A DNA stretch of 64,000 bases from an uncultured Gemmatimonadales bacterium (GCA_963795085.1 CAWCFX010000002.1:1-64000), one strand, 5' to 3'. Positions 1-16,599 are shown, counted from the first letter of the stretch. The notes: generated by a model not told the origin, from the sequence alone. Program-made: numbers and translations.

Positions 1-10
1 CCACGTATTG

Positions 11-334
11 CTATGGGGCGAGCCCTTTGGCGCCGAATACTCGAACAAGGGGCTTCAGTCTCAGGATCTTACGATTGACCAGTTCTTGAAGCCCATAGGC
101 GAACATGGCTTCGAGGCACTTAAACTTACGATTGCCTGGCGCGACCGAAAGGGGGTCGAACACTGCCACTTGGATCGTCGGCTCAGTAAAGGTGGCGTGC
201 CTGCCTACGGCTAGTATCCGGAATGCGGTGACATCCTCAGCAAGGTGAACAATAGGCTCGAACCCGAAGTGCAAGTCCTCTTCAGCGACATCGACCCATC
301 CGTGCTGCAGGCGCACCTCAATCTCTCCGGCCAA
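11..334 (-). CDS. Cassette 1 hypothetical protein (107 aa)
   Basis: TTG start 5 nt after GGAGGT, close to the cassette start; lower GC than host genes. Confidence 0.55.
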   Translation of the reverse strand: MAGEIEVRLQHGWVDVAEEDLHFGFEPIVHLAEDVTAFRILAVGRHATFTEPTIQVAVFDPLSVAPGNRKFKCLEAMFAYGLQELVNRKILRLKPLVRVFGAKGLAP

Positions 335-366
335 GTATTACCTCCAGCTAGTAGAGTAGTGAGACT

Positions 367-463
367 GCCTAACGGTTTGCGCTTGAGCGGCAACCGCGCT
401 CAGCATATGGTGGCGTCCATCGGGTAGCCGGGCGCGGTTGGCCGCTCCAAGCGCGTGTTAGGC
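367..463 (-). repeat. attC site 1
   Basis: Minus strand reads GCCTAAC-ACGCGCTTGGAGCGG...CCGCTCAAGCGC-AAACC-GTTAGGC, with an unpaired G in the L'' arm. Confidence 0.93.
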
Positions 464-784
464 AGTCTCATCGTTACACAGGCGTCGGCACACGAGGTTC
501 CTCGGGAGCTTCGACTGGCTTGGTGCCGGAGACGGACGTTTGGCGATAAGACGCTCAGTAAAATCCTGGCGCTCTGCTAGTTCCTCCAATTGCCTCTGAA
601 TTGCGTCGAACTCGGCAGTCGATCTCACGTCTCTTGGCTGGGGTTCAGGCTCCAGTGAGTGAGAGCCAAAAGGGTCACGCCCAGCCAGGAATTGTCTCCT
701 CGTCCGAACGACTCCAAGGACGAAGGCGGCGGCCGGTAGCCCAGCCAGGAGCAAGTAGGCCCACCAGTACAGGGTCTCGAACAT
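458..784 (-). CDS. Cassette 2 membrane-anchored hypothetical protein (108 aa)
   Basis: N-terminal hydrophobic segment and a coiled-coil-like stretch (IQRQLEELAERQDFTERL). The TAA stop lies within the attC inverse core, as is typical of cassette genes. Confidence 0.7.
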   Translation of the reverse strand: MFETLYWWAYLLLAGLPAAAFVLGVVRTRRQFLAGRDPFGSHSLEPEPQPRDVRSTAEFDAIQRQLEELAERQDFTERLIAKRPSPAPSQSKLPRNLVCRRLCNDETA

Positions 785-837
785 CAGGGCCTCCTGAGTC
801 GTGGCAATTCACCTTCGTCCAAGAATTGGGGTGAGGC

Positions 838-935
838 GCCTAACGGTTTGCGCTTGAGCGGCAACCCGCGCTCAGCATATGGTGGCGTCCATCGGGTAGC
901 TCGGCGCGGTTGACCGCTCCAAGCGCGTGTTAGGC
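838..935 (-). repeat. attC site 2
   Basis: Copy of the array repeat. Confidence 0.93.
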
Positions 936-951
936 GGATGCTGCTGACGTG

Positions 952-1488
952 CTAATGGCAAACGACAACACCGCCAAGTGCGTTCACAGCTCGCGGACTA
1001 TCGTCGGCGCGCACATAATCCTGAGTCATTGTGAAAAAGCAAGCATCACTGGTTGGCACAAAGATGGCTATCACAAGCCTAAGGGTATCAGCCGTTTTGG
1101 CGTCAGGAGTATTGAAACGGACTCCAAACTTGGCAAAACTGCCAGCGCCAACAGCCATCATACTATCATTCCAAAGACCTCCGACCGCCTGTTGAGTCAA
1201 TAGGTGCGAAAGCCAATCCAAAGCAAGTGGCCGTGCCTTCAGGTGTGAAGCGTCCCAGACATCTGGAAATAGCAAAAGATTTATGGGCCTGATACTGTCA
1301 GGGCGACCACGGAATAGCGGATCGCGGCTGGCCATTATTGCTGCCGGCACCTGGCCAAGAGCAGATTCATACATCGCATATGAGGTCTGATCGTCCACAA
1401 TTGGCTTGGGGGCGTTCCTACCTTGAGCAGGAACACAGCCGGCGAGCCAAATGCCGATAAGCCACAACTGGTTCAAGGAGATCTTCAC
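952..1488 (-). CDS. Cassette 3 putative lipoprotein (178 aa)
   Basis: ORF fills the cassette; signal peptide with lipobox LAGC; lower GC. Confidence 0.75.
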   Translation of the reverse strand: MKISLNQLWLIGIWLAGCVPAQGRNAPKPIVDDQTSYAMYESALGQVPAAIMASRDPLFRGRPDSIRPINLLLFPDVWDASHLKARPLALDWLSHLLTQQAVGGLWNDSMMAVGAGSFAKFGVRFNTPDAKTADTLRLVIAIFVPTSDACFFTMTQDYVRADDSPRAVNALGGVVVCH

Positions 1489-1495
1489 GGCATCC

Positions 1496-1593
1496 GCCTA
1501 ACGGTTTGCGCTTGAGCGGCAACCCGCGCTCAGCATGTGGTGGCGTCCATCGGGTAGCCGGGCGCGGTTGACCGCTCCAAGCGCGTGTTAGCT
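1496..1593 (-). repeat. attC site 3
   Basis: Copy of the array repeat. Confidence 0.93.
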
Positions 1594-1897
1594 GCACGCT
1601 GCGGGTCTACCTACGCTGTCCTCGCGAGATGAGCCAGGTCGCAGCCCGATCGGCGAAGCAGCGAGTTCCGGCCAGGCCGTATGTCAGTCGTCGGCAGGTC
1701 CGCCTACCTGCGATGCGCGAGCGGCATCCGTTGGGCAATGAACGATGAAGCCACTCGACCTTGCCAGGTCACTGCGATACCGAAGCTAGCAGATCGGAAC
1801 CAAGGCTCGCGACTTGACAGGATCGCGCCGAGTGACCAAGTGCCCAGCAAGCCGATGCGCATAGGCGCTCAGATGATCTCAGAGGCTCATGGCGGCT

Positions 1898-1994
1898 GCC
1901 TAACGGTTTGCGCTTGAGCGGCATTCGCGCTCAGCATGTGCTGGCGTCCATCGGGTGGCTCGGCGCGAATGGCCACTCCAAGCGCGTGTTAGGC
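1898..1994 (-). repeat. attC site 4 (subtype 2)
   Basis: Variant with CATTCGCGC/GCGCGAATG inner stem. Confidence 0.93.
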
Positions 1995-2434
1995 AGCCGC
2001 TTGTCGGATCTGCACGGCGTCGATCGCCTGCGACTGTCAGTGACGTGCGCTAAGCTCGAAGTCATGCGAGCGCCGTGCTCAGCGAAGACTGAAGTGCCAT
2101 GCCGTATGCGACCGAGCTGCTCCGTGCTAGCGCCAAGGACGCTTCCGCAGATCCGGGCATGATCCGACGAGGCCTCCGGCATCGACGGAAGCCGAGTGCC
2201 TGAGCATCGGCCGCATGGCCAATCGCAACGTGAACGGTGCAGGGATGTCCTGGGAAGCGACCTGCTGAGCGGAGGCCGTCCAGCGATCAGCTCGCACATG
2301 CACGCTGCGCATGCCAGCAAGTGACGGACTGCCTAGCACGCAGGCATGTCGCGCTGCGATAGGCGACGCTGAGAACTGCCGAGCAGCAGCGATCGCAATG
2401 CATGGACTGGTCGCATAGGATGCTCCTGGGCGCC

Positions 2435-2531
2435 GCCTAACGGTTTGCGCTTGAGCGGCAACCGCGCTCAGCATATGGTGGCGTCCAGCGGGTAGCTGGG
2501 CGCGGTTGACCGCTCCAAGCGCGTGTTAGAC
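2435..2531 (-). repeat. attC site 5
   Basis: Copy of the array repeat. Confidence 0.93.
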
Positions 2532-3024
2532 GCCCACCCTTGTTGGAACTGCCCCGGCATCCGATCACCTGGGATGTGGGGGGCCTGCCTAGAACCTGCA
2601 GCGCTAACCCGGAACGTCAAGAGCCCAGGCGGAGCAGGGGAGGGCACGGGCCAGCCAAGCCCGGTGCTTTCGGTTCCTGGTGACAGGACGGCCTCCACGG
2701 CTTCGAACTGCACAAGTGGCGGCCTTCCTTGGCGGAGCGGAGCCGGAGCTCGCCTGGAATACCCTTTGGACCGCCGTCGGGACCCGCCCGAAGCAAATGG
2801 AAGACCTCCTTGGCCCAGCGGAGCGGAGCTGGCCGAGGAACCGGCGTTGACCCCAGGCGGGATCCGCCCGGCGCAAATGAAGGACTTCCTTAACAAAGCG
2901 AGGCCTGGACCTGGTGGCGAGTACCCGGTGACCTGTCTGCGGGAAGTGCCAGGAGAGTGCGTCTGAATCCCCGGCTTGGACTACCCCGGCTGCAGTCAGA
3001 AAAGATGTACGATCGTCGGTGGGC
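2532..3024 (-). other. Gene-less cassette family A (cassette 6)
   Basis: 493 bp; nearly identical to 6058-6550 and close to 10800-11286; no reading frame conserved across the family. Confidence 0.8.
2593..2620 (-). promoter_or_regulatory. Candidate sigma70-like promoter in gene-less cassette (TTGACG-N16-CAGGTT)
   Basis: Both boxes and their spacing are conserved between families A and B while the spacer sequence differs. Confidence 0.45.
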
Positions 3025-3121
3025 GGCTAACGGTTTGCGCTTGAGCGGCAACCGCGCTCAGCATATGGTGGCGTCCATCGGGTAGCCGGGCGCGGTTGAC
3101 CGCTCCAAGCGCGTGTTAGGC
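3025..3121 (-). repeat. attC site 6
   Basis: Copy of the array repeat. Confidence 0.93.
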
Positions 3122-3556
3122 AGCCGCTGTCAGCCGGCCGACACGGATCGGTGCCTCGCTAGACCTGCATGCCAGCCGACGTCAAGACTCGGCATGCTGC
3201 CGGATACTGACGTGCCGAAGCGTGTCCAGCCTGCGTCGGATGGCACCATGCGCCGAGCTGGCATCAAGCTGGATGCCGAGCATCGAGCCAGCAGCGACCT
3301 GATGGCACGCCGTCAGCGCGATCCGCGCGATCGCGACAGCGAAGCACATGCTTGGCGCAGCGAGCCGACTGCCTAGGATGAGCCGTCGACGCAGATCGAC
3401 CTGGCGCACATGAAGGACGCTCAGCGCAGCCGAGGCCGGAGCTGCTGCACGCATCCGCAGCTGCGGTAAGTCACTGAGCGAGCCAGGCGTGCCGATCAGC
3501 AGCTCGATAGACCAGCTGAGTGCATCGGACTCAGCTCATCGTGAGCTTGGCTGCGC

Positions 3557-3653
3557 GCCTAACGGTTTGCGCTTGAGCGGCAACCGCGCTCAGCATATGG
3601 TGGCGTCCATCGGGTAGCTGGGCGCGGTTGACCGCTCCAAGCGCGTGTTAGCC
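3557..3653 (-). repeat. attC site 7
   Basis: Copy of the array repeat. Confidence 0.93.
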
Positions 3654-4186
3654 GCCTACCCCTGGTCGCTCTCCGGCAATCGGATGCCTGGATGCTGGGG
3701 GCCTGCCTAGAACCTGCAGCGCCAACCCGGAACGTCAAGAGCCCGGCTGGCGCCGGGTAGTGCACGGGCCGCCAGGCCCGGTGCTCCCAGCCCTGGTGAC
3801 AGGACGGCCCCCACGGCTGCGGGCTGCACACATAGTGACCTTCCGCTGGCAGAGCGGAGCCGGAACTCAGCCTGAGTACCGTTGGATCGCCTGCGGGACC
3901 TGCTCGGAACAAATGAAGGACCTCCTGGGACAGCGGAGCGGAGCTGGCCGAGGCATCGGCAGCTGGACCGTCTGCGGGACCAGCCCGAGCAAATGAAGGA
4001 CTTCCTTGGCGCAGCGAGGCCGGAGCCTGGTGGCCGGACTCGGTGACTGCCTGCGGGAAGCGCGGGAAGCGGAGTGCGAGGTCCTCACTCGGACTAACCT
4101 GAGCGAGCTCGCGCAGTCAGGCAACGAACGCTGAGCGCAGCGTCAGTAGTGTGCACCGTTGACGCATCGATGGAGCTCGTGGCGCT
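3654..4186 (-). other. Gene-less cassette family A, divergent, with scrambled right end (cassette 8)
   Basis: Shares family A motifs up to ~4100, then becomes homopolymer-poor sequence. Confidence 0.7.
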
Positions 4187-4284
4187 GCCTAACGGTTTGC
4201 GCTTGAGCGGCAACCCGCGCTCAGCATATGGTGGCGTCCATCGGGTAGCCGGGCGCGGTTGACCGCTCCAAGCGCGTGTTAGAC
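4187..4284 (-). repeat. attC site 8
   Basis: Copy of the array repeat. Confidence 0.93.
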
Positions 4285-4777
4285 ACCCACCCTTGGTGGC
4301 GCTCTCCCGGCAACCGACAGCCTGGGATGCTGGGGGCCTGCCTAGAACCTGCAGCGCCAACCCGGAACGTCAAGAGCCCGGGCGGAGCAGGGGAGGGCAC
4401 GGGCCGGCCAGGCCCGGTGCTCCCCATCTCTGGTGACAGGACGGCCCCCGCGGCTTCGGGCTGCACAAATGGCGGCCTTCCTTGGCGTAGCGGAGCCGGA
4501 GCGAGCCTGGTGTACCCGGCGGACCGCCTGCGGGACCCACCCTGAACAATTGAAGGACCTCCTTGGCCCAGCGGAGCGGAGCTGGCCGGGGAACCGCACC
4601 TGACCCTCTGCGGGACCCGACCGGAGCAAGTGAAGGACTTCCTTGGCGCAGCGAGGCCTGGGCTTGGTGACGAGTACCTGGTGAACCGTCTGCGGGAGGC
4701 GCAAGGAAAGGGAGTCCGAAGTTCCGGCTGGGACTGCCCCGGGGGCAGTCAGAAAAGATGTTGGGCCGTCGGTGGGT
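4285..4777 (-). other. Gene-less cassette family A variant (cassette 9)
   Basis: 493 bp, collinear with cassette 6 but with many substitutions. Confidence 0.8.
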
Positions 4778-4874
4778 GGCTAACGGTTTGCGCTTGAGCG
4801 GCATTCGCGCTCATCATATCCTGGCGTCCATCGGGTGGCCCGGCGCGAATGGCCACTCCAAGCGCGTGTTATGC
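4778..4874 (-). repeat. attC site 9 (subtype 2)
   Basis: Variant inner stem. Confidence 0.93.
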
Positions 4875-5372
4875 GCCAGCAGATTAGCACGGTATTCGCC
4901 TTCCGATGACCTCAATAGGCTCGTGGTAGCCATCGACATCCCACGCCCTGCTTCCCCGTGCCGCGAACAGAATCAGGTGATGTCAGAGCAAGCGTGAAGT
5001 CAAGACCTTGACCTTGCCAGCCTGACCGGAGAGCCACCGCACTGAGTCCGAGTGGCGAGCCGACCACTGGCCGACCATGGCATCAGGCGCGTTCGGCTCT
5101 GCCATCGCCTGCGCTCGCCGGATTAACACCTGTTCCGTCTGCGAGCGTGGCCGAGATTGCTCCTTCAAGACAAGAGAATCAGAAAAAGCCTGAGATGGCC
5201 GCGCCATAACCGAGAGTGTCCTTCGGCACTGGCGTGACAACACTCAGAGCATAGCAACCCACGTAAGGGCGCTCATTGTCCTTGAGCGGAGCCGGCGTCC
5301 ACTCCGGGGCTTTCGAGAGTCTCGCTCCACAGCCCAATAGAACGAGAAACGCAACAGGCGATAGATGCGCAT
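4875..5372 (-). pseudogene. Cassette 10 frameshifted putative lipoprotein
   Basis: ATG at 5372 is one base out of frame with HLSPVAFLVLLGC (lipobox). The sequence continues in another frame (AFSDSLVLKEQ...). The 3' end is uncertain. Confidence 0.55.
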
Positions 5373-5413
5373 GACGTTAGGGTGCCCTCGCAGAAGAGCT
5401 TGCACAGGCTGGC

Positions 5414-5510
5414 GCATAACGGTTTGCGCTTGAGCGGCAACCGCGCTCAGCATATGGTGGCGTCCAGCGGGTAGCCGGGCGCGGTTGACCGCTCCAAGCG
5501 CGTGTTATGC
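5414..5510 (-). repeat. attC site 10
   Basis: Copy of the array repeat. Confidence 0.93.
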
Positions 5511-5960
5511 GCCGCACCGGTGCCGATCGGCCAGCTGGCATCGCCCTGGATCTAGCGACCGGCCTCCGAACCGGCTAGCACGTGACCCGGACAGCCTGAC
5601 AGGTCCACGCTGCCAGGCAGCGTAGAGCCGATCGAGCCGGCGCTCATCCGACGGCAGCCTGGAACTGTCGACGAGCCATGCAGCTGCGCCTGACGAGCAT
5701 GCCTGCGACCTGAGCCAGGCAGTCGGCGCATCGGACGGCACTGCCGACGGCTCGAAGCTGCAGCCACCTGCATCCGAGTGAGCCGACGCAATCGACGACC
5801 GTCAGCGAGACCGCACCGGCGCAACTGACGATCCCTAGCGATCCGTAGGCCGTGACCTGGAAGCCTGGACGCTGCCTGCAGCACGTGCGAGAGTCGCGTG
5901 AGCTCACGCGGCCGAGCGGCCGAGCGATCGCAGTCGAAGCATCATGGGCTACGGCGTGCG

Positions 5961-6057
5961 GCATAACGGTTTGCGCTTGAGCGGCAACCGCGCTCAGCAT
6001 ATGGTGGCGTCCAGCGGGTAGCTGGGCGCGGTTGACCGCTCCAAGCGCGTGTTAGAC
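5961..6057 (-). repeat. attC site 11
   Basis: Copy of the array repeat. Confidence 0.93.
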
Positions 6058-6550
6058 GCCCACCCTTGTTGGAACTGCCCCGGCATCCGATCACCTGGGA
6101 TGTGGGGGGCCTGCCTAGAACCTGCAGCGCTAACCCGGAACGTCAAGAGCCCAGGCGGAGCAGGGGAGGGCACGGGCCAGCCAAGCCCGGTGCTTTCGGT
6201 TCCTGGTGACAGGACGGCCTCCCCGGCTTCGAACTGCACAAGTGGCGGCCTTCCTTGGCGGAGCGGAGCCGGAGCTCGCCTGGAATACCCTTTGGACCGC
6301 CGTCGGGACCCGCCCGAAGCAAATGGAAGACCTCCTTGGCCCAGCGGAGCGGAGCTGGCCGAGGAACCGGCGTTGACCCCAGGCGGGATCCGCCCGGCGC
6401 AAATGAAGGACTTCCTTAACAAAGCGAGGCCTGGACCTGGTGGCGAGTACCCGGTGACCTGTCTGCGGGAAGTGCCAGGAGAGTGCGTCTGAATCCCCGG
6501 CTTGGACTACCCCGGCTGCAGTCAGAAAAGATGTACGATCGTCGGTGGGC
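6058..6550 (-). other. Gene-less cassette family A (cassette 12), duplicate of cassette 6
   Basis: I saw a single substitution relative to 2532-3024. Confidence 0.85.
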
Positions 6551-6648
6551 GGCTAACGGTTTGCGCTTGAGCGGCAATCCGCGCTCAGCATATGGTGGCG
6601 TCCATCGGGTAGCCGGGCGCGGTTGACCGCTCCAAGCGCGTGTTAAGC
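6551..6648 (-). repeat. attC site 12
   Basis: Copy of the array repeat. Confidence 0.93.
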
Positions 6649-7126
6649 GCCGACCAACCAGTGCCTGGCCAGGATCTGAACGGTGCCTGCTTGAACTTGC
6701 CTCCGAAACCGGGGCCGTCAAGTACTGGGCGGCTGGCTGGTCCACGTGGCCGGGGCAGCTCGATTCGGGCGGCTGCAGTCGGGGACGGCGACCGCGGGCC
6801 GGGTTGGCACAAGTGGACGCTTCCGCAGCATCCAGCGGGCAAGGAGCCGAGCCTTGGCTGGGTGGGCCGGGGAGCCGGGACCCGCCGATCACAAATGAAG
6901 GACCTCCTTGGCGCAGCGAGGCCGGAACTGTCCTGGGTGACGTCCGCTGGCGGCCGGCGGGACTGACCCGGCGCGAATGAAGGACTTCAATTGCTCAGGG
7001 GAGCCGGAGGCTGGCCTTGCTGACGTGTTCGAGGACGGCGGGAGTTTCTGGCGAGCCAGGCTTGCGGGCCGGGCAGGGGAGTGGCCCGGTGGTGTTCCAC
7101 TCCGTTCCTAGTGTGAGATGGTTGGC
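6649..7126 (-). other. Gene-less cassette family B (cassette 13)
   Basis: 478 bp; near-identical to 7224-7700 and 8932-9408. Confidence 0.85.
6694..6721 (-). promoter_or_regulatory. Candidate sigma70-like promoter in family B cassette (TTGACG-N16-CAAGTT)
   Basis: Same boxes and spacing as in family A. Confidence 0.45.
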
Positions 7127-7223
7127 GCTTAACGGTTTGCGCTTGAGCGGCAACCGCGCTCAGCATATGGTGGCGTCCATCGGGTAGCCGGGCGCGGTTG
7201 ACCGCTCCAAGCGCGTGTTAAGC
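7127..7223 (-). repeat. attC site 13
   Basis: Copy of the array repeat. Confidence 0.93.
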
Positions 7224-7700
7224 GCCGACCAACCAGTGCCCGGCCAGGATCTGAACGGTGCCTGCTTGAACTTGCCTCCGAAACCGGGGCCGTCAAGTAC
7301 TGGGCGGCTGGCTGGTCCACGTGGCCGGGGCAGCTCGATCCGGGCGGCTGCAGTCGGGGACGGCGACCGCGGGCCGGATTGGCACAAGTGGACGCTTCCG
7401 CAGCAGCCAGCGGGCAAGGAGCCGAGCCTTGGCTGGGTGGGCCGGGGAGCCGGGACCCGCCGATCACAAATGAAGGACCTCCTTGGCGCAGCGAGGCCGG
7501 AACTGTCCTGGGTGACGTCCGCTGGCGGCCGGCGGGACTGACCCGGCGCGAATGAAGGACTTCAATTGCTCAGGGGAGCCGGAGCTGGCCTTGCTGACGT
7601 GTTCGAGGACGGCGGGAGTTTCTGGCGAGCCAGGCTTGCGGGCCGGGCAGGGGAGTGGCCCGGTGGTGTTCCACTCCGTTCCTAGTGTGAGATGGTTGGC
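7224..7700 (-). other. Gene-less cassette family B (cassette 14), tandem duplicate
   Basis: Near-identical to cassette 13. Confidence 0.85.
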
Positions 7701-7797
7701 GCTTAACGGTTTGCGCTTGAGTGGCATTCGCGCTCATCATGTCGTGGCGTCCATCGGGTAGCCCGGCGCGAATGGCCACTCCAAGCGCGTGTTAGGC
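7701..7797 (-). repeat. attC site 14 (subtype 2)
   Basis: Variant inner stem. Confidence 0.93.
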
Positions 7798-8257
7798 AGC
7801 CGCTCATCGATGACGCTAGCCACGCACGCCAATGTCGCAGCAGCCATCCGAAGCTGGCGTCGGCCCGACTAGTGTGCACTGCGATGCACGAAGGCTCGAT
7901 GACACCATGCGGCCGACCGGGTAAGTGCTGCCATCATCGAATCTGCATGAGATCCGGACAACGATGCGCCCTGCAATCACGCCGAGCGACTGTACTTGCA
8001 CTGACGGTAAGCGCAGAGCCTCCGACAATCGCGACTGCAGCCAGCATGATCGCCATGCAGCCGAGCAGTGGACCGACGACCACAAGATCAAGGCCACATC
8101 CGTTCGGTGAGAGTCCGAGTGCCGGAGCACAATGCACATCGCGAGCTGCTGCACGCAGCGCTCAGCACCAAGAAGCGACACAGCGACCAGTGCGCCCGAT
8201 CTGCGATGCCAGACGACCAGTCATGTCGAAGCTCACATCAGAGGTGCTATGGCGGCC

Positions 8258-8355
8258 GCCTAACGGTTTGCGCTTGAGCGGCAATCCGCGCTCAGCATAT
8301 GGTGGCGTCCAGCGGGTAGCCGGGCGCGGTTGACCGCTCCAAGCGCGTGTTATGC
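8258..8355 (-). repeat. attC site 15
   Basis: Copy of the array repeat. Confidence 0.93.
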
Positions 8356-8833
8356 GCCCAATCACCCCGGTCCCTGGCCAGCCTGGACGGCCCTGCTTGA
8401 ACTTGCCTCCGAATCCGGGGCCGTCAAGTACTCGGCAGCTGGCGGGTCCACGCTGCGGAGGCGGCTGGATGCGAGCGGTTGCAGTCGGGGACGGCGGCCG
8501 AGGGCCGGGCTGGCACAAGTGGACGCTTCCGCAGCATCGAGCGGACGAGGAGCCCGCCGACCCTTCGGCGAACCGGGCAGCCGGGACCGGACCGGCAGCA
8601 AATGAAGGATTTCCTTAGCGCAGCGAGGCCTGGGCCTGCCTGGTTGACGCCAGCTGGCGACCGTCGGGACTCAGCTGGCGCAAATGAAGGACTTCCTTGC
8701 TTCAGGGGAGCCTGAGGTCGGGAGAGCGACGTAGCTCAAGGGCGACGGGACGTTCTGGCGAGCTGGACCTGGCGGTCCGGCAGGGGAGTGGACCGGCGGT
8801 GTTCCGCTCAGTTGATCGAGGCGAATGATTGGC
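8356..8833 (-). other. Gene-less cassette family B variant (cassette 16)
   Basis: 478 bp, collinear with cassette 13 but diverged. Confidence 0.8.
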
Positions 8834-8931
8834 GCATAACGGTTTGCGCTTGAGCGGCAATCCGCGCTCAGCATATGGTGGCGTCCATCGGGTAGCCGGG
8901 CGCGGTTGACCGCTCCAAGCGCGTGTTAAGC
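8834..8931 (-). repeat. attC site 16
   Basis: Copy of the array repeat. Confidence 0.93.
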
Positions 8932-9408
8932 GCCGACCAACCAGTGCCCGGCCAGGATCTGAACGGTGCCTGCTTGAACTTGCCTCCGAAACCGGGGCCG
9001 TCAAGTACTGGGCGGCTGGCTGGTCCACGTGGCCGGGGCAGCTCGATCCGGGCGGCTGCAGTCGGGGACGGCGACCGCGGGCCGGATTGGCACAAGTGGA
9101 CGCTTCCGCAGCATCCAGCGGGCAAGGAGCCGAGCCTTGGCTGGGTGGGCCGGGCAGCCGGGACCCGCCGATCACAAATGAAGGACCTCCTTGGCGCAGC
9201 GAGGCCGGAACTGTCCTGGGTGACGTCCGCTGGCGGCCGGCGGGACTGACCCGGCGCGAATGAAGGACTTCAATTGCTCAGGGGAGCCGGAGGTGGCCTT
9301 GCTGACGTGTTCGAGGACGGCGGGAGTTCCTGGCGAGCCAGGCTTGCGGGCCGGGCAGGGGAGTGACCCGGTGGTGTTCCACTCCGTTCCTAGTGTGCGA
9401 TGGTTGGC
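8932..9408 (-). other. Gene-less cassette family B (cassette 17)
   Basis: Near-identical to cassettes 13 and 14. Confidence 0.85.
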
Positions 9409-9505
9409 GCTTAACGGTTTGCGCTTGAGCGGCAACCGCGCTCAGCATATGGTGGCGTCCATCGGGTAGCCCGGCGCGGTTGACCGCTCCAAGCGCGTGT
9501 TATAC
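9409..9505 (-). repeat. attC site 17
   Basis: Copy of the array repeat. Confidence 0.93.
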
Positions 9506-9775
9506 GGCGCAGCCGCCACTGCGGAGCTGCAGACCGGCGTCTCCGGCTCATCGATAGCGTACGCCGTGGCCGGAAACCGCCACACCTCCCGGACGGTCCA
9601 GCCCTGGTGACAGTTCCGCGTCCGAGGACCAGCGCCGCACCAATCGACGCTTCCGTAGCAACCCGGAGCACGAGCTCGCTGCACGCTGCCCGGACCGTGC
9701 AGCCATCCGGGAGCCGCTTGAGCAGGACTGCTGTTCACCGCTCCGCTGTAGGAGCGCAGGCAAGTCCTGGGCGCC
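9506..9775 (-). other. Short gene-less cassette related to families A and B (cassette 18)
   Basis: 270 bp; contains CCAGCCCTGGTGACAG (A-like) and GCAC..A..GACGCTTCCG.AGCA (B-like). Confidence 0.55.
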
Positions 9776-9872
9776 GTATAACGGTTTGCGCTTGAGCGGC
9801 AACCGCGCTCAGCATATGGTGGCGTCCATCGGGTAGCCGGGCGCGGTTGACCGCTCCAAGCGCGTGTTAGGC
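9776..9872 (-). repeat. attC site 18
   Basis: Copy of the array repeat. Confidence 0.93.
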
Positions 9873-10231
9873 GCCGCACTGGTCGCCTGCCGCAGACAGC
9901 TCAGCTGGAGCCTGCCGAACTGCACTCGGATAGTCGACACGCCGAGCTGCGAATCCGCCAGCAGCCGATGCTCCGGACTGGTGCAGCGCACCTGAGCTGA
10001 CTGCAGGCCATCTCGCGATCGGCTGCAGACGTGCCGCGATACCGATGCGACGGCTCATGCCAGTGTAGCAGCCGTGAGCATGCGAGCGAGCCGCCTACGC
10101 TGTCACCGGGCAATGCGCCGTCGCTCAGAGTGCGGCGCATGAGCCGATGCCGATGCCGGAACTGGTGACTGCAGCCGTCGAAGCCAGTGCACCATTGCAA
10201 GGCAGCAGCGATGCTCTGAGTCGTGGCAGGC

Positions 10232-10328
10232 GTCTAACGGTTTGCGCTTGAGCGGCAACCGCGCTCAGCATATGGTGGCGTCCAGCGGGTAGCCGGGCGC
10301 GGTTGACCGCTCCAAGCGCGTGTTAGGC
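10232..10328 (-). repeat. attC site 19
   Basis: Copy of the array repeat. Confidence 0.93.
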
Positions 10329-10702
10329 GCGCACCGCACTGGCGTAGCTGCATCCGATCGACGATCCTGAGCCGTGAGCTCCGCCAGATCGACTGTCAGC
10401 TGCCCTTCCACCAGGTCGAAATGCGCACCTGACCGCTCGTCGGCGCAGACGTGGATCAGACGAGCTCGTGACAGCACCTGCGTACCGATGCGATCCAGGC
10501 CAGCATCGGCGACCACTGAAGTCGGCGACGTGTCCTTCGGATAGCTCAACAGGTGCACGCCAGCTCGCTACGAATCGGCTAGCGGACCTCTGCCAGACCG
10601 CACTCAGATCGAGCATGACGCAGGACCTGGTGCGCATCGGATCAGGCTGCGGCACCAGCTCGAAGCCGAGTCAGGATCATGGCCATCGATGCCATGGCGG
10701 CT

Positions 10703-10799
10703 GCCTAACGGTTTGCGCTTGAGCGGCAACCGCGCTCAGCATATGGTGGCGTCCATCGGGTAGCTGGGCGCGGTTGACCGCTCCAAGCGCGTGTTAGAC
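10703..10799 (-). repeat. attC site 20
   Basis: Copy of the array repeat. Confidence 0.93.
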
Positions 10800-11286
10800 G
10801 CCCACCCTTGGTGGAGCTGCCCCGGCATCCGATCACCTGGATGTGGGGGGCCTGCCTAGAACCTGCAGCGCTAACCCGGAACGTCAAGAGCCCAGGCGGA
10901 GCAGGGGAGGGCACGGGCCAGCCAAGCCCGGTGCTTTCGGTTCCTGGTGACAGGACGGCCTCCACGGCTTCGGACTGCACAAGTGGCGGCCTTCCTTGGC
11001 AGAGCGGAGCCGGAGCTCGCCTCGAATACCCTTTGGACCGCCGTCGGGACCTGCCCGAAGCAAATGGAAGACCTCCTTGGCCAGCGGAGCGGAGCTGGCC
11101 GAGGAACCGGCGTTGACCCCGGCGGGATCCGCCCGGCGCAATGAAGGACTTCCTTAACGAAGCGAGGCCTGAACCTGGTGGCGAGTACCCGGTGACCTGT
11201 CTGCGGGAAGTGCCAGGAGAGTGCGTCGAATCCTCGACTGGACTAACCCGGGTGCAGTCAGAAAAGATGTACGATCGTCGGTGGGC
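10800..11286 (-). other. Gene-less cassette family A (cassette 21)
   Basis: Close to cassette 6, with a few substitutions and shortened homopolymers. Confidence 0.8.
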
Positions 11287-11384
11287 GGCTAACGGTTTGC
11301 GCTTGAGCGGCAATCCGCGCTCAGCATATGGTGGCGTCCATCGGGTAGCTGGGCGCGGTTGACCGCTCCAAGCGCGTGTTAGGC
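11287..11384 (-). repeat. attC site 21
   Basis: Copy of the array repeat. Confidence 0.93.
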
Positions 11385-11855
11385 AGCACGTACGCTAATC
11401 GATCGCGTCGAGCTATCGCACTGGCTCTGCGGCATCAGCTTGGACTTCCCTCCGAATCGATGCGCCAAGTCCTGGCGACGGCACAGCGATACTCGGATCG
11501 AGCGGCCGGTCGCATGATCGCATGTCAGACGGCATGCTCGACGAGCCGACACTGGCCCACCACAGTGACGTGGCCGCAGTCGAGCGAGCTGGCATAAGCG
11601 CCGACACTTCAGTGGACCTGGAAGCCGGCACGCGCCGAGCGACAAACGAAGACGTCCTTAGCGAGCATGCCGGACGTGTTGGAGACGTCGCTGACGGCCA
11701 TGGGCTCACTCAGCGCAATGAGCGACTTCCATTGCTCAGGAGCCGAAGCTGGCAGTGCGACGTGTTCCAGCACGACGGGGCACTGGCAGATGCAGCTGCT
11801 GGAGGCACGGAATGGACCAATCGGTGTCCACTCAATTCATCGGAGCGCTGGTGCT

Positions 11856-11923
11856 GCCTAACTCCTATTTACCTGTATCCAGCAGATAATGACCTGCCTC
11901 TAGTATGACGTCTAACTCCCATT
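11856..11923 (-). other. Putative attI site
   Basis: Last GTTAGGC core (minus strand), not embedded in an attC; marks the start of the array; carries a direct repeat CTAACTCC(T/C)ATT. Confidence 0.7.
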
Positions 11924-12187
11924 CCGCTAGACCCCCCCACCTCCCACACAGCACAGGGCTCCCTGCAGGTTGACCGCATCCAATGCAGGGATGCGTGCCG
12001 TTGGACTGCACTGGAAATGGACTGCGCCGGACCGAAAGGGGACCCCCCGGGCCACCCTGTCCGACCCTCCCTTCCTGAAACTCGCGGTGGACTGGAGCGT
12101 CTCCTGGCCAGGGTCAGGTCGAGCCCCCGAGACACAGGCTGGCGTCAGTGACCCGCCACAGGTGGCAAGGATGCGGCGTCGGGATGC

Positions 12188-12610
12188 TCAGGGCCCCGAG
12201 CCGGTGGGGATGATGCCGGCCGTCTCCACCATCAGGATCACCGCCCGCTCCGGCGCGCGGGTACGGTGCCGCACTCCCCTGGGCACGACAAACCCCTCGT
12301 GCGGGCCCAGCCGGACGACTCGGCCCGGGGTCACCCCGTCGGCGAGTGGCTCCAGGTCAATAAGGAACTGCCCGGCGAGGACGAAGAAGAACTCGTCGTC
12401 GTCCGTATGCTCGTGCCAGTGGTACTCGCCCTGCATCACGCCCAGCCGGACGACGGCATCGTTCACCCGGACCAGCGTCTGGTTGTACCAGGCGTCCCGC
12501 ACCGCACCAACCAGGGGGTCGAGGGCGAAGTGCTCGAGCGCGCCGAACTTCACGTCGAGGTAGGTGGCGTAAGGGAACGCCGGCTGGGGTTGCGCGTCAG
12601 GGGTTGTCAT
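12188..12610 (-). CDS. Cupin domain protein
   Basis: Cupin motifs GEYHWHEH..DEFF.V..G and VVPRGVRHR. Confidence 0.85.
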   Translation of the reverse strand: MTTPDAQPQPAFPYATYLDVKFGALEHFALDPLVGAVRDAWYNQTLVRVNDAVVRLGVMQGEYHWHEHTDDDEFFFVLAGQFLIDLEPLADGVTPGRVVRLGPHEGFVVPRGVRHRTRAPERAVILMVETAGIIPTGSGP

Positions 12611-12619
12611 GTACCCTCC

Positions 12620-13978
12620 TCAGATGGAGCGGGCGATCCGCAGTATGGCGGCAATGGAGCGGTCCACGTCATCGTCGGTCGTAGCCCAGGAGATGACGCT
12701 CACCCGCATCGCGGTGGTGCCCTTCCACACCGTGGGCCCGCACCAGCAGGTCCCGTCGGCCTGGATGGCCGCGACCACCGCCCGCGTGCGGGCATCGTCG
12801 CCGAAGCTGACCAGGACCTGGTTCAGGACCACGTCATTGAGGACCGGGAACCCCGCGGCCGTAAACCCGTCGGCGAAACGCCGCGCCTGGCGACAGTGGC
12901 GCTCGACCATGTCGGCGAGGCCGGAGCGGCCGAGGCTGCGAAGCGCCGCCCAGGCATCCACGCCGCGGGGGCGGCGCGACGCCTCGGGCGTCACGTCGGA
13001 GCCGTGGCCCTCGCCGGCCGGGAGGTAGTCGGCGCGAAGGGTCATCGTCCGCTGGAGCGCAGCGGCGTCCCGCACGATCGCAATGCCGCAATCAAAGGGC
13101 GTGTTGAGCCACTTGTGGGCGTCGGTCGCCCAGGAGTCGGCCAGCTCGACGCCGTCCACCAGGTGGGCGCGCGCCGGCGCCACCCGGGCCCAGATGCCGA
13201 AGGCGCCATCCACGTGCAGCCATACCGGTGCGCCCGATGCGCGCGCGTGGGCGAAAATGTCGGGGAATGGATCGAAGGACCCGCTGTTCACGTCGCCGGC
13301 CTGGGCGCACAGGATCGTCGGGCCGCTGATGCGGGGAAGCGCATCAGCCCGCATGCGACCCTGCGCGTCGGACGGCACGGTCACGACGCGCTTCCGGCCA
13401 AGGCCGATAATGTGCAGTGCCTTGAAAAGAGTGGAGTGGCCTTCTTCACCGACGATCACGGTGATCGGCGGTGCGCCAAAGAGCCCCTGCTCGGCGACGC
13501 TCCAGCCCACCCGCGCGAGCAGCCCATCGCGCGCCGCGGCGAGGCACGTGGCATCGCCGACAGTGGTGCCGGTGACGAACCCCACCGCCGCGTCATGGGG
13601 GAGCCCGAGAAGATCGAGCACCCAGCGGCGCGCGACGCGCTCGAGGAAATGGCTCCCCGGCGACATCTCGCGGAAGGCGCCGTTCTGTCCCCACGCCGCG
13701 GTGAGGCAGTGGGCCGCGAGCGCCGCGGGAAGTGCGCCGCTGTTGACGAAGCCGAAGTAGCGCGGCCCCGCGACCGCCGTGGCGGCCGGCGCGCCCCAGC
13801 GGTCCAGCTCCGCGACGACATCCGCGGCGGAAAGCGGCTCGTCCTGGAGCGGGACGTCGAGGTTGGCCAGGCCGGCGATCGCGTCATCCGCCGGAAAGAC
13901 GCGGCGCTCGGCGACGCCCTCGAGGAAGCGTCGCGAACGGGCGGCCACATCATCGAGCAGATCCCCGCGCGGGCTCAT
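12620..13978 (-). CDS. PLP-dependent (group II) amino-acid decarboxylase
   Basis: PRYFGFV, WLHVDGAFG and DSWATDAHKWLN (PLP lysine). Confidence 0.9.
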   Translation of the reverse strand: MSPRGDLLDDVAARSRRFLEGVAERRVFPADDAIAGLANLDVPLQDEPLSAADVVAELDRWGAPAATAVAGPRYFGFVNSGALPAALAAHCLTAAWGQNGAFREMSPGSHFLERVARRWVLDLLGLPHDAAVGFVTGTTVGDATCLAAARDGLLARVGWSVAEQGLFGAPPITVIVGEEGHSTLFKALHIIGLGRKRVVTVPSDAQGRMRADALPRISGPTILCAQAGDVNSGSFDPFPDIFAHARASGAPVWLHVDGAFGIWARVAPARAHLVDGVELADSWATDAHKWLNTPFDCGIAIVRDAAALQRTMTLRADYLPAGEGHGSDVTPEASRRPRGVDAWAALRSLGRSGLADMVERHCRQARRFADGFTAAGFPVLNDVVLNQVLVSFGDDARTRAVVAAIQADGTCWCGPTVWKGTTAMRVSVISWATTDDDVDRSIAAILRIARSI

Positions 13979-14016
13979 CTTGACCCCCGCGCGCGAGGCG
14001 AACAAGTTACCCGCCC

Positions 14017-14853
14017 ATGAACACTACGGAATACGTCGAAATGCGGGTGCTGCCGTGGGCCCGCCCGGTGGACGTGCTCCGGGCCCGCTACACGACGTTC
14101 GAGTTTCCGACCCACGCCCACGCCGAGTTCACGATCGGCGAGGTGCTCCAGGGGAGCGAACGGTTCGCCCACCAGGGAAGGGAGGTGGAGGCGGCAACGG
14201 GCTGGTTCATTCATATCAATCCCATGGAAGCGCATGATGGGCGGGCGGCGGATGGGTCGTGGACCTATGTCTCGCTGTATCCGGGCGTGGAGTTCCTGCG
14301 GGCGATGCTTCCCGAGCTGTGTGCGCACGGGGATCCCCGGTTCGACGCGCCGATCTCGTATCGTCCCCCATTGCAGGGACGCATCGCGTCGTTCGTCAGG
14401 CGAGCCTTTGCCGGCGCGGACGACCTCGAGTTGCAGTCGGACCTGGTGGACATCCTCGGCGCGCTGATCCCGCCCTCCTTTCCGCGCAACGCGACTCGCG
14501 GTCCCGACGCGGGTAGCCATGCGGGTGCCATCGCCCGGGTGCGCGACCGGCTGGCCGGAGAGTGGAATCGGAACCTGACCCTGGCCGAGTTGGCCGGCGC
14601 GGAGTCGATCACCCCGCTCGCGCTGCTGCGGTCGTTCCGCGAGGAGGTGGGATGCACCCCGCAGATCTACCGCACCGCGCATCGTCTCGCGGCCGCGAAG
14701 CAACTCATGCGCGCTGGCGGCGAGCTGGCCGCCGTGGCGATGCAGTGCGGGTTCACGGATCAGAGCCACTTCACCAACACCCTCCGCAGGTGGACCGGGA
14801 TGACGCCGGGACAGTACCGGGCCATCGCCCGTTCGTCCAGCCGTATGGCGTAA
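14017..14853 (+). CDS. AraC family transcriptional regulator
   Basis: N-terminal HxH cupin-like domain; C-terminal GFTDQSHFT...GMTPGQY; divergent from the decarboxylase. Confidence 0.9.
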   Translation: MNTTEYVEMRVLPWARPVDVLRARYTTFEFPTHAHAEFTIGEVLQGSERFAHQGREVEAATGWFIHINPMEAHDGRAADGSWTYVSLYPGVEFLRAMLPELCAHGDPRFDAPISYRPPLQGRIASFVRRAFAGADDLELQSDLVDILGALIPPSFPRNATRGPDAGSHAGAIARVRDRLAGEWNRNLTLAELAGAESITPLALLRSFREEVGCTPQIYRTAHRLAAAKQLMRAGGELAAVAMQCGFTDQSHFTNTLRRWTGMTPGQYRAIARSSSRMA

Positions 14854-15533
14854 GAATATTCCCCCTGGGGGCGGCTGTCTTGCAAGATCTTTCCAACGGA
14901 TACATCGGTGTGGTCAACCGGGAGGCATAGCATTGCGCCTATCCCCGGGCAAGGACAATGCGCCCCAGTTGGAGGACGCCGGGGGTGGGCTTGGAACACA
15001 GGTGAAGTCGGGTGGATCGTCCCGGCACTGAGGTGGAAGAAGCCGGCAAGAGGGTTGGGCCCACGGAACTGCAGGGTGGCTGGGGCAGACAGGAGGGTTG
15101 GCCCGCCGGGCAGCCGGGTGGAAACCCGCCGAGGGCAGGCTCGACCCGCACGGCAGGGAGGGGGGAGTCCCAGTACAAGAGGGTTGGAGCCCTCGGCCGA
15201 AAGGTCGAAGCCCCCGGATAACCAGGTTGAACCAGCCGGCAGGCCGCTCCAACCGGCCGCCAACCGGGTTGAAGGGGGCGGACAGGCCCCTTGGATCACC
15301 CGGAAATTGGGTTGGACCCCCCGTCCAATCACCTTGGACCCCGATTGAGGACAGCTTGGAACGCCCGTACAGCCGGCTTGGGAGGGGGCGAAACAAGGGT
15401 AAGAATTCCCGCACCCAGGGTGGATGGCTGGGGAAAACAGGGTTGGGCTGGGCCGACAGGGAGGTTTTTCCGGGGTGAGACGGTGGTGGATAGACAGAGG
15501 GGAAGGTGACAATGGGCCAGTTCACGACCCCAG

Positions 15534-16511
15534 TCAGGGAAGCCGAAGCAGGTCCGCCGGGCTCCGCACCCCGAATGCCCCCCGGTTAAGAACGTGGGTG
15601 TAGATCATGGTGGTCCTCAAGTCCCGGTGCCCCAGCAGTTCCTGCACGGTCCGGATGTCGTAGTGGTCCTCCAGCAGGTGGGTGGCAAAGGAGTGCCGGA
15701 AGGTATGACAGCTCGCCGGCTTGGTGAGCCCCGCCCGGCGCACCGCGGCCTTGACCGCCCGCTGGACCGCGGTCGGGTGGAGCGGCATCCGGAGGAGCCT
15801 GCCCGACTTGCCCCGCCTGACCCGGCGGGCCGGGAACAGCCACTGCCACCCCAGGTCGGTCGGCGCGGACGGAAACTTGACGTCCAGCGCGTCGGGCAGC
15901 GGGACCTCGATCCCCCGCTCGGCGTCCGCGGCGCGCTGCCGCTCGAGGAGATGAATGGCCTCCCGCAGCGCCCCGCGCACCCCGTCCGGCAGGACGGTGA
16001 TACGGTCCTTGTCCCCCTTGCCACGGCGCACCACGATCTCGTTCCGCTCGAGGTCCACGTCCTTGACCCGGAGCCTGAGCGCCTCGTTGAGACGAAGCCC
16101 GCTGCCGTAGAGCAATAGAGCGATCAGCCGCATGCGGCCATTCATCTCCCCGATAACGGCCTTGACCTCCAGCGGAGTCAGCACGACCGGCCGCCGCCGC
16201 TCCCCCTGGTGTGCCCGGATCCGGAGGATGATCCGGCCGAGCGGTCGCTTCAAGACCTCGTTGAAGAGGAACTGGAGCGCGCTCAGTGCCTGGTTCTGGG
16301 TCGCGCCGCCCACCCGGCGCTCCGAGACCAGGTGGGTGATAAAGGCATGCACCTGGGCCTCCCCCAGGGTGGCCAGGTCGGCGCCGTGATGGAAAAGGAG
16401 GAACCGACGCACCCACGCCAGGTAGGCCCGCTCCGTCCGCCGGCTGTACCGACGGATCCGGAAGACCTGCCGCATGCGCCGGAGGACGGGATCGAAAGGC
16501 TCGGCTGACAT
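15534..16511 (-). CDS. intI: Integron integrase (tyrosine recombinase)
   Basis: YS.RTE.AY..W, TQNQALSAL.FL, LLYGSGLR, GKGDKDR, IntI-specific insert LPDAL..K.P.A..D.GWQWLFP, HTFRHSFATHLL, QELLGH and TTMIYTHV. Confidence 0.95.
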   Translation of the reverse strand: MSAEPFDPVLRRMRQVFRIRRYSRRTERAYLAWVRRFLLFHHGADLATLGEAQVHAFITHLVSERRVGGATQNQALSALQFLFNEVLKRPLGRIILRIRAHQGERRRPVVLTPLEVKAVIGEMNGRMRLIALLLYGSGLRLNEALRLRVKDVDLERNEIVVRRGKGDKDRITVLPDGVRGALREAIHLLERQRAADAERGIEVPLPDALDVKFPSAPTDLGWQWLFPARRVRRGKSGRLLRMPLHPTAVQRAVKAAVRRAGLTKPASCHTFRHSFATHLLEDHYDIRTVQELLGHRDLRTTMIYTHVLNRGAFGVRSPADLLRLP

Positions 16512-16599
16512 CGAGCCCAAGGTAGGCGGAACAGGGAGAACCCGATAACCGGAATGACGCGAGACTCAGCAAAACGCCGCGGCTCGCGGACCAGGCTGG

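Follow-up and report, generated by a model that had tools for sequence, protein, structure and literature searches.

A family of gene-less cassettes, candidate internal promoter cassettes, in a chromosomal integron of an uncultured Gemmatimonadales bacterium

The DNA analyzed here (GCA_963795085.1, CAWCFX010000002.1:1-64000; hereafter the window) is the opening 64 kb of contig C2 in the assembly of an uncultured Gemmatimonadales bacterium, a genome of 3.9 Mb in 6 contigs that is 93% complete. It begins inside the cassette array of a chromosomal integron. Ten of the 22 cassettes in the window belong to a single non-coding superfamily, comprising five members of family A, four of family B, and one decayed cassette (C0) in the first slot. 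We give about an even chance to the interpretation that these, together with a subfamily D recovered from metagenomes, form one lineage-restricted gene-less family whose members are likely to be promoter cassettes internal to a sedentary chromosomal integron.

Gene-less cassettes of a chromosomal integron

The array is marked by 21 near-uniform attC-like repeats of ~95 nucleotides (nt) at positions 358–11396, with a spacing of 367–658 nt. Read on the minus strand, all 21 have R'' YYTAAC at the start and R' GTTA at the end, as integron cassettes do (R'' RYYYAAC, R' GTTRRRY and a G|TT boundary), and the bases following G|TT are complementary to those preceding R'' of the same cassette. One example is the first cassette, which begins TTAGGCAGCAC, complementary to GTGCTGCCTAA ahead of its own attC. 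Cuts at G|TT yield 20 complete cassettes, and the attI-proximal cassette (11294–11861) and one cut off at the window start bring the total to 22. The array is tied to an integron integrase by intI (15534–16520, minus strand), which lies 3.7 kb from the first cassette and encodes a product of 328 amino acids (aa) that matches NCBIfam TIGR02249 with 375.7 bits (cut-off 265) and contains the Pfam domains Phage_integrase and SAM_4. The gene is co-oriented with the cassettes, as in Treponema-type integrons. The minus orientation of the cassettes is indicated by the longest open reading frame (ORF), which is in the minus sense in 11 of the 11 non-family cassettes of the window and in cassette sense in 11 of the 16 cassettes of an array piece at the end of contig C1, and by the attC 3' of A16, which was duplicated together with its copied cassette.

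A first-pass annotation of this DNA had assigned nine of the 22 cassettes to two related families, A and B. BLAST comparison of the cassette bodies, together with core and block matches far above chance (see below), confirms that the families are real; the starts then proposed agree with the body ends within ~4 nt, and C0 is added as a tenth member. Family A comprises the reference A16 (2441–3030; 5' leader 2892–3030, attC ~2441–2535), A10 (5967–6556), A13 (4193–4783), A14 (3563–4192) and A1 (10709–11292; 584 nt including attC), and family B the reference B9 (6557–7132; attC ~6557–6651), B8 (7133–7706), B6 (8264–8839) and B5 (8840–9414), all on the minus strand. BLAST identities to A16 within family A are 100 (A16), 99.8 (A10), 96.4 (A1), 83 (A13) and 80% (A14, over 401 nt), and those to B9 within family B are 100 (B9), 99.0 (B8), 98.3 (B5) and 78.7% (B6). 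A13 is 83% identical to A16 over 495 nt without an indel, whereas A14 has an extra 5' leader insert of 46–50 nt and many 1-nt indels. A1, at 96.4% identity to A16, has 12 substitutions and lacks a single nucleotide at six separate places. Several of these 1-nt deletions fall within short homopolymers, and the six could be either real or long-read consensus errors. B8 and B5 are 99.0% and 98.3% identical to B9, and B6 is the diverged member at 78.7%. Body lengths are 489–496 nt in family A (535 nt in A14) and 480–481 nt in family B. The decayed C0 (11294–11861, minus strand) is B-like, with 75% identity to B9 over 182 nt. A BLAST search of the whole genome with the cassette bodies places both families only within the first 12 kb of C2.

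These are mobile units that were copied as whole cassettes. A10 and A16 differ at 1 of 590 positions; at the 3' side their identity stops within 4 nt of G|TT, with unrelated neighbouring cassettes beyond, and at the 5' side it extends 21 nt into the conserved upstream attC. The copying was cassette-precise and not a segmental or assembly duplication. An assembly origin of the copies is further countered by near-identical fragments of families A and B in contigs of two other studies, and the proposal that these are gene-less, cassette-precise mobile units of the integron holds.

The families are non-coding, and a protein-coding function for A and B is excluded. Substitution counts by position modulo three are flat in all eight diverged pairs (p = 0.10–0.96; e.g. 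30/21/33, 41/41/36 and 26/29/39), and indels are mostly of 1–2 nt; those that exceed this length are confined to the A13/A14 pair, namely two gaps of 3 nt and the 5' insert of 46 nt. As a control, a sulfatase-like gene of the window compared with its same-genus ortholog (70% identity) gives counts of 74/63/193 without gaps (p = 3e-21), and p ≤ 4e-7 in 480-nt pieces; the control is an orthologous gene, as the sole paralogous pair of coding cassettes is 99.8% identical and too alike for the purpose. ORFs that start at the TTGs of the internal units (see below) encode 1–116 aa in frames that are inconsistent between members, and the ORFs of 85–147 aa present in the copies vary between members in strand, frame and length. 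Six family ORFs have no match in Pfam, and the two longest (147 aa and 142 aa) have no homolog among 5.8 billion proteins, with lengths of ~0.55–1.75 times the query. The initial observation that no reading frame is conserved is thus upheld, and no ORF under purifying selection is seen in the homologs compared, while the control gene is strongly periodic. Families A and B lack both a protein homolog and a synonymous-site pattern, the features by which Boucher 2006 confirms gene-less cassettes; they do not pass the ORF-length screens used for such cassettes (150 bp in Boucher 2006, 210 bp in Blanco 2024), although these cut-offs are operational, were set for AT-rich Vibrio, and are not a defining property. 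ORFs above the 210-bp screen arise because the cassette DNA is 66–69% G+C, and chance ORFs are expected in it.

The first-pass annotation had also offered structured non-coding RNAs as a possible identity of these cassettes, and this proposal is not supported. On neither strand do the A and B bodies fold more stably than shuffled sequences (z = +1.63, +0.45, +0.01 and -0.17), RNAalifold finds 0 consensus pairs on either strand of 24 aligned units, and consensus folds of whole bodies are no more stable than -15 and -21 kcal/mol, their covariation terms being -0.44 and -0.73. Only a short helix that would pair unit 3 with the GCCGTCC block has a two-sided change separating the families, and just one such change; a search of Rfam with positions 1–16000 at E values up to 1 gave no match. 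A structured RNA is therefore not supported, as conserved structure, covariation and excess stability are all lacking in the tests of A and B.

Internal units and the promoter-like block

All members share a common layout, in which a leader of ~140 nt is followed by the repeat units, a GCCGTCC block, a promoter-like block and the attC. In A16 the unit cores are at 2874–2891, 2794–2811 and 2713–2730, GCCGTCC is at 2686–2692 and the promoter-like block at 2589–2621; in B9 the cores are at ~6974–6991, 6892–6909 and 6811–6828, and the promoter-like block is at 6690–6722 (all minus strand). Each core consists of a Shine-Dalgarno-like AAGGARG, a gap of 7–8 nt, and TTG. GCCGTCC is 23 nt past the TTG of the last unit, and the promoter-like block begins 105–110 nt past the last core. 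Three units of 81 bp had been described; two are clearly related, whereas the third is more diverged, and the units are 80–84 nt from core to core. In unit 3 the bases between AAGGARG and TTG are wholly different, with the motifs and their spacing kept. The 17-nt core has 16 matches at ≤2 mismatches against 0.01 expected, and pairwise identity of units over 81 nt is 0.40–0.63 compared with 0.34 ± 0.09 in shuffled sequence. Tandem Repeats Finder makes no call on the 81-nt units, and we take them to be old duplications.

The cores look like translation initiation sites, because AAGGAGGT is the exact complement of the 3' end of the 16S rRNA of this genome. The core is also a near-palindrome, AAGGA-NN-TCCTT. 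Outside the array, a genome search finds AAGGANNTCCTT at a single palindromic site and GTCCTTCATTTG nowhere, and because the near-palindromic core has only this one other genome site, no shared operator is evident. The cores, their spacings and GCCGTCC are under constraint for both sequence and spacing, with a regulator or the ribosome as candidate partners. Two other candidates were considered and set aside. One is a sponge for CsrA/RsmA, suggested by the repeated GGA; PF02599 was not found in this genome (93% complete), in a search that did detect CsrA in three (E. coli, B. subtilis and T. maritima) of the 14 control genomes. The other is a set of small ORFs on the plus strand starting from an ATG within the core, and this ATG is lost in family D.

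The promoter-like block, CTTGACG-N16-CARGTTCWAG, is the most conserved element of the cassettes. It matches without mismatch nine times against 0 expected, at the site in A16 given above and on the minus strand at 3707–3739, 4342–4374, 6115–6147, 6690–6722, 7265–7297, 8396–8428, 8973–9005 and 10856–10888. None of the 11 aligned members, drawn from A, B and D, departs from TTGACG, a spacer of 16 nt and CARGTTCWAG, whereas the letters of the spacer vary and only 25% of all alignment columns are near-invariant. C0, in contrast, has a degenerate TTGGCG...GAAGTC with a shortened spacer and counts as lacking the block. The block is in cassette sense, TTGACG starts 75–92 nt ahead of the TAAC in R'' of the attC, and the initial description of a promoter-like element just upstream of each cassette's own attC is correct in this respect. 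We compared it with a promoter matrix built for this genome from the 30 best sites among the upstream regions of 52 tRNA genes. The tRNA-derived pattern is TTGnnn, mostly N17, and TAnnTT, with a 16-nt spacer in 2 of 30 sites, CAnnTT variants in 3 of 30, and a first -10 base of C in 3 of 30 and G in 3 of 30. The block sequence TTGACG-16-CAGGTT/CAAGTT agrees with this pattern at all strongly weighted positions except the first -10 base, and in 9 of the 11 block-bearing members no other sense-strand site scores higher. A sigma-54 reading of the block, tried by eye, was rejected, as its conserved GG and GC are separated by 8 nt in place of the 10 nt of the sigma-54 consensus. Many tRNA genes genome-wide have short-period tandem repeats between the promoter and the gene (for example CTGCACG, ACTGACCC and CAATTCC units).

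Several observations weigh against a promoter. The matrix score of the block, 8.9–9.4, is only at about the 85th percentile of the best sites in random 580-nt pieces of the genome (mean 6.5, standard deviation 2.9, with 11% reaching 10) and below the 10.5–18.3 of the tRNA promoters, a generic sigma-70 scan does not call it, and the matrix itself leans towards sigma-70-like sites because it was seeded with the E. coli consensus. In a Vibrio study, software failed to predict which gene-less cassettes were active (Blanco 2024, PMC11014356). A bare promoter does not need the cores and fixed spacings kept in the ~400 nt upstream, nor would it account for conservation continuing beyond the -10 hexamer (GTTCWAG), and the members often stand side by side, which is redundant for promoters. 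Finally, on the other strand the block reads GAACYT-N17-CGTC and resembles a promoter for a sigma factor of the extracytoplasmic function (ECF) group. The case for a promoter therefore rests on the conservation of the block, because its score is unremarkable.

Promoter cassettes and the alternatives

In the arrangement that we favor, the integron integrase would copy and shuffle the family members as whole cassettes, each bringing a putative sigma-70-type promoter (TTGACG-16 nt-CARGTT) in cassette sense 75–92 nt upstream of its own attC as its most constrained element, and transcripts would cross the attC into the next cassette. Since transcripts would run on in this way, the members are most likely internal promoter cassettes. 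An argument from placement, that runs of other cassettes lie just downstream of a member, does not stand. The ten members form five runs where 5.9 are expected for a random order of 10 + 12 cassettes (n_N(n_C+1)/n), with adjoining members in B5-B6, B8-B9-A10 and A13-A14, and the argument is a tautology because any run of other cassettes that is not the first must follow a member.

The tendency of diverged members to adjoin, seen in the window and also in a soil contig (L014, see below), fits selfish cassettes, that is, parasites of the integron that excise efficiently and re-insert at attI, with blocks that serve propagation or hitch-hike and no role in expression. This is possible though on balance rather unlikely. 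It would account for the presence of members in 10 of the 22 cassettes next to attI and in 0 of 16 complete cassettes of the array piece at the C1 end, a contrast that depends on a C1–C2 adjacency that is only presumed, and for the tolerance of a decayed member in slot 1. Selfish elements are one of two options for paralogous non-coding cassettes listed in Boucher 2006 (PMC1382264), and the array of a relative (G078) with 26 cassettes and no paralogs indicates that an array does not need such a family. It leaves unexplained why subfamilies with only 67–83% identity keep invariant blocks at a distance from attC. No IntI recombination step is known to use sites inside the cassette body, and a selfish origin and promoter activity are in any case compatible with each other. 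A different function, transcription of the body from the other strand, follows if the block is a plus-strand ECF-type promoter (GAACYT-N17-CGTC) of an antisense non-coding RNA gene, with two or three copies of CAAAUGAAGGAYYUCCUUGG whose 16S-tail-like CCUCCUU could pair with Shine-Dalgarno regions. The order, a conserved promoter and then a conserved body, would be that of an ordinary gene; conservation extends past hexamer length in both CTWGAACYTGC and CGTCAAG, the genome has 30 matches to sigma-70-family region 2 (~20 of them of ECF size), and its 16S 3' end is the canonical CCUCCUU. We nevertheless regard such a gene as unlikely, since the distance from AAC to CGT in the block is 19 nt where described ECF promoters have 16–17. 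GAAC...CGT candidates lie upstream of only 5 of the 21 ECF-size sigma genes in this genome, with distances of 14, 16, 16, 16 and 18 nt, and give no clear spacing for its own ECF promoters. The plus strand, moreover, has no folding signal, covariation or Rfam match, and its core ATG is missing in family D. An extension of the same transcript, that the cassettes are mobile trans-regulators of cassette translation, we consider very improbable; here two or three 16S-tail-like copies of CCUCCUUGGCGC could base-pair near the 5' ends of coding cassettes, where the Shine-Dalgarno region in some cases reads GCGCCAAGGA. If it were true, the integrase would shuffle genes together with a dosage-variable silencer of their translation.

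The units themselves are the focus of another account, in which each initiates translation (AAGGARG, 7–8 nt, TTG) of a short ORF of irrelevant sequence, and the loading of ribosomes could stabilize a long cassette transcript or shield it from termination. This could act alongside a promoter. The Shine-Dalgarno-like motif, the spacing and TTG are kept in all unit types including unit 3, AAGGAGGT is perfectly complementary to the 16S tail, and one unit of B9, B8 and B5 has the start TTG immediately before the stop TGA. There is also a precedent in attI1, where a short ORF (ORF-11) with its own initiation region affects cassette expression (review PMC8876359). We doubt this account all the same, as neither the lengths (1–116 aa) nor the frames of the ORFs are conserved, and the near-palindromic AAGGA-NN-TCCTT suits a DNA-binding protein equally well. 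Also, the conserved promoter follows the units, so that only a transcript begun ahead of them would include them. That the members are decayed protein-coding cassettes, specifically repeat-protein pseudogenes, is the explanation that we find hardest to credit, even with ORFs of 85–147 aa in most copies and an 81-nt spacing that equals 27 codons. The spacing varies from 80 to 84 nt and is no fixed multiple of three, neither codon periodicity nor protein homologs were found, and near-invariant short cores with diverged flanks are the opposite of neutral decay. A 59-codon ORF common to A16 and A13 has ~76% amino acid identity, below the 83% nucleotide identity of the bodies.

Relatives and known systems

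Close relatives of this integron are absent from the reference genomes, because the best integrase match is only 58% identical, and integron integrases as such are present (E ≤ 1e-40) in 94 of 151 genomes of the order, a count that includes this genome and the unpublished G107. BLAST with an A body gave 0 matches in 40 relatives, the 18-nt unit core gave 0 matches in 400 other genomes of the order, and a two-core pattern searched in one genome per species is present at only 2 loci, both in unrelated coding DNA. A metagenome scan, using a pattern of a -10-like word followed by the start of this attC, yielded four soil contigs with the same attC type and subfamily D; one match, in L013, was rejected as a chance GTTCAAG within a coding cassette. 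Family D has five complete copies of ~505 nt, three of them in tandem in L014, and three cut copies. It has two units where A and B have three, and its members are 77–88% identical among themselves and 67–70% identical to B over the aligned parts. One A-type record from another study has 41 letters in place of ~190 in the window, which suggests that it has fewer units. The sequencing runs listed for this DNA include no RNA run; two DNA runs, with shares of 0.07 and 0.06, were compared with the window.

In one of the metagenome contigs (L011, minus strand, ~183–570) a 385-nt cassette with a different attC type has a unit-3-like core, GCTAAGGAAGCGTCCCATTGTAG, and is located directly before a family D cassette; the core motif is therefore not tied to one attC type. 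Among intI-adjacent stretches of eight relatives (16 fetched, one of 89 nt), a repeated attC-like 14-mer is present in 3 of the 14 that are at least 3 kb, and of these relatives' arrays that of G078 was the only one analyzed (L058, G078:C1:4000-23870). It has 26 cassettes in 20 kb with no paralogs and mostly ORFs of 110–220 aa, and two or three of its cassettes are GC-rich (GC 0.68–0.71) with short ORFs only.

The first-pass annotation had not recognized this architecture as a described family. The family and its internal layout are indeed new, but the kind is known (PMC1382264, PMC11014356 and PMC6557892). The closest functional parallel is in Vibrio, where most of 29 gene-less cassettes had sense promoter activity, with start sites anywhere in the cassette (Blanco 2024, NAR, PMC11014356). 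Those cassettes too are attC-bounded, lack a gene and reside in a large sedentary chromosomal integron, and have a sense promoter that would drive downstream cassettes, with promoter activity measured in Vibrio and predicted here. By analogy, published cassettes of this kind make a promoter reading the natural default. The cassettes described here are from another phylum, have no sequence similarity to those of Vibrio and have ORFs above the 210-bp screen, and the portion of that paper available describes no fixed-spacing internal repeat units (PMC11014356). The paralogous non-coding cassettes of Vibrio (Boucher 2006, BMC Evol Biol, PMC1382264) are likewise multi-copy in one array, with close homologs only in related integrons, whole-length conservation and no synonymous-site pattern; promoters or selfishness are proposed for them there, and they account for up to 49% of the array in V. 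vulnificus CMCP6 compared with 10 of 22 cassettes here. The present subfamilies are, in contrast, far more diverged (to ~67%) with discrete invariant blocks kept, their internal unit number varies (2 or 3, possibly fewer), and the host is a soil Gemmatimonadales.

ORF-less cassettes of oral Treponema also have a sigma-70-like promoter, and promoter activity was demonstrated for them (Tansirichaiya 2019, Sci Rep, PMC6557892). Unlike the situation predicted here, some are reported there to be active antisense or on both strands, and no repeat architecture is mentioned in that paper, whose main text never uses the word 'repeat' (PMC6557892). That an ORF-less cassette can have an RNA product is established by sRNA-Xcc1 of Xanthomonas, a trans-acting small RNA from an integron cassette (Chen et al. 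2011, as cited in PMC8876359), whereas the cassettes here have no Rfam match within 1–16000 and no conserved structure on either strand. Gene-less promoter cassettes are thus already described as a category and no new one is opened; the novelty lies in this family, its phylum, its discrete conserved blocks and Shine-Dalgarno–TTG units whose number varies. In large chromosomal integrons many cassettes are far from the platform promoter, and their expression has been worked out only in Vibrio and Treponema. Our findings suggest that amplified gene-less cassettes are also present in soil integrons of the Gemmatimonadota type, and comparison of the subfamilies pinpoints candidate functional blocks, namely the promoter-like block and the Shine-Dalgarno–TTG units of varying copy number.

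The remainder of the integron has several other features. A candidate attI (11862–11940, minus strand), recognized by reading the sequence, has a lower GC content and contains GGAGTTAGRC twice as a direct repeat; the G|TT junction with the first cassette falls in the second copy. intI is not adjacent to it, and three non-cassette genes intervene, coding for a cupin (12188–12610, minus strand), a pyridoxal phosphate-dependent decarboxylase (12620–14005, minus strand) and an AraC-family regulator (14017–14853, plus strand); they are followed by a 680-nt stretch (14854–15533) in which no gene and no Rfam match was found. Contig C1 ends in 17 further sites of this attC type (1381164–1390351, minus strand), which run off the contig and are probably a continuation of the window array. 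The type is also present in a five-site cluster elsewhere on C1 (621820–626847) and as single sites on C6 at 416529 and 428037. One coding cassette of the window, of 658 nt (844–1501), has a 178-aa sense ORF without a Pfam match and a 99.8% identical copy as cassette 4 of the C1 array. In several coding cassettes (e.g. those starting at 10708, 1903 and 1501, and others in the C1 array) the start codon is 11–13 nt past G|TT (TTAGGCAGCCGCCATG...) without a Shine-Dalgarno motif; other coding cassettes have GCCAAGGA... ahead of the start codon.

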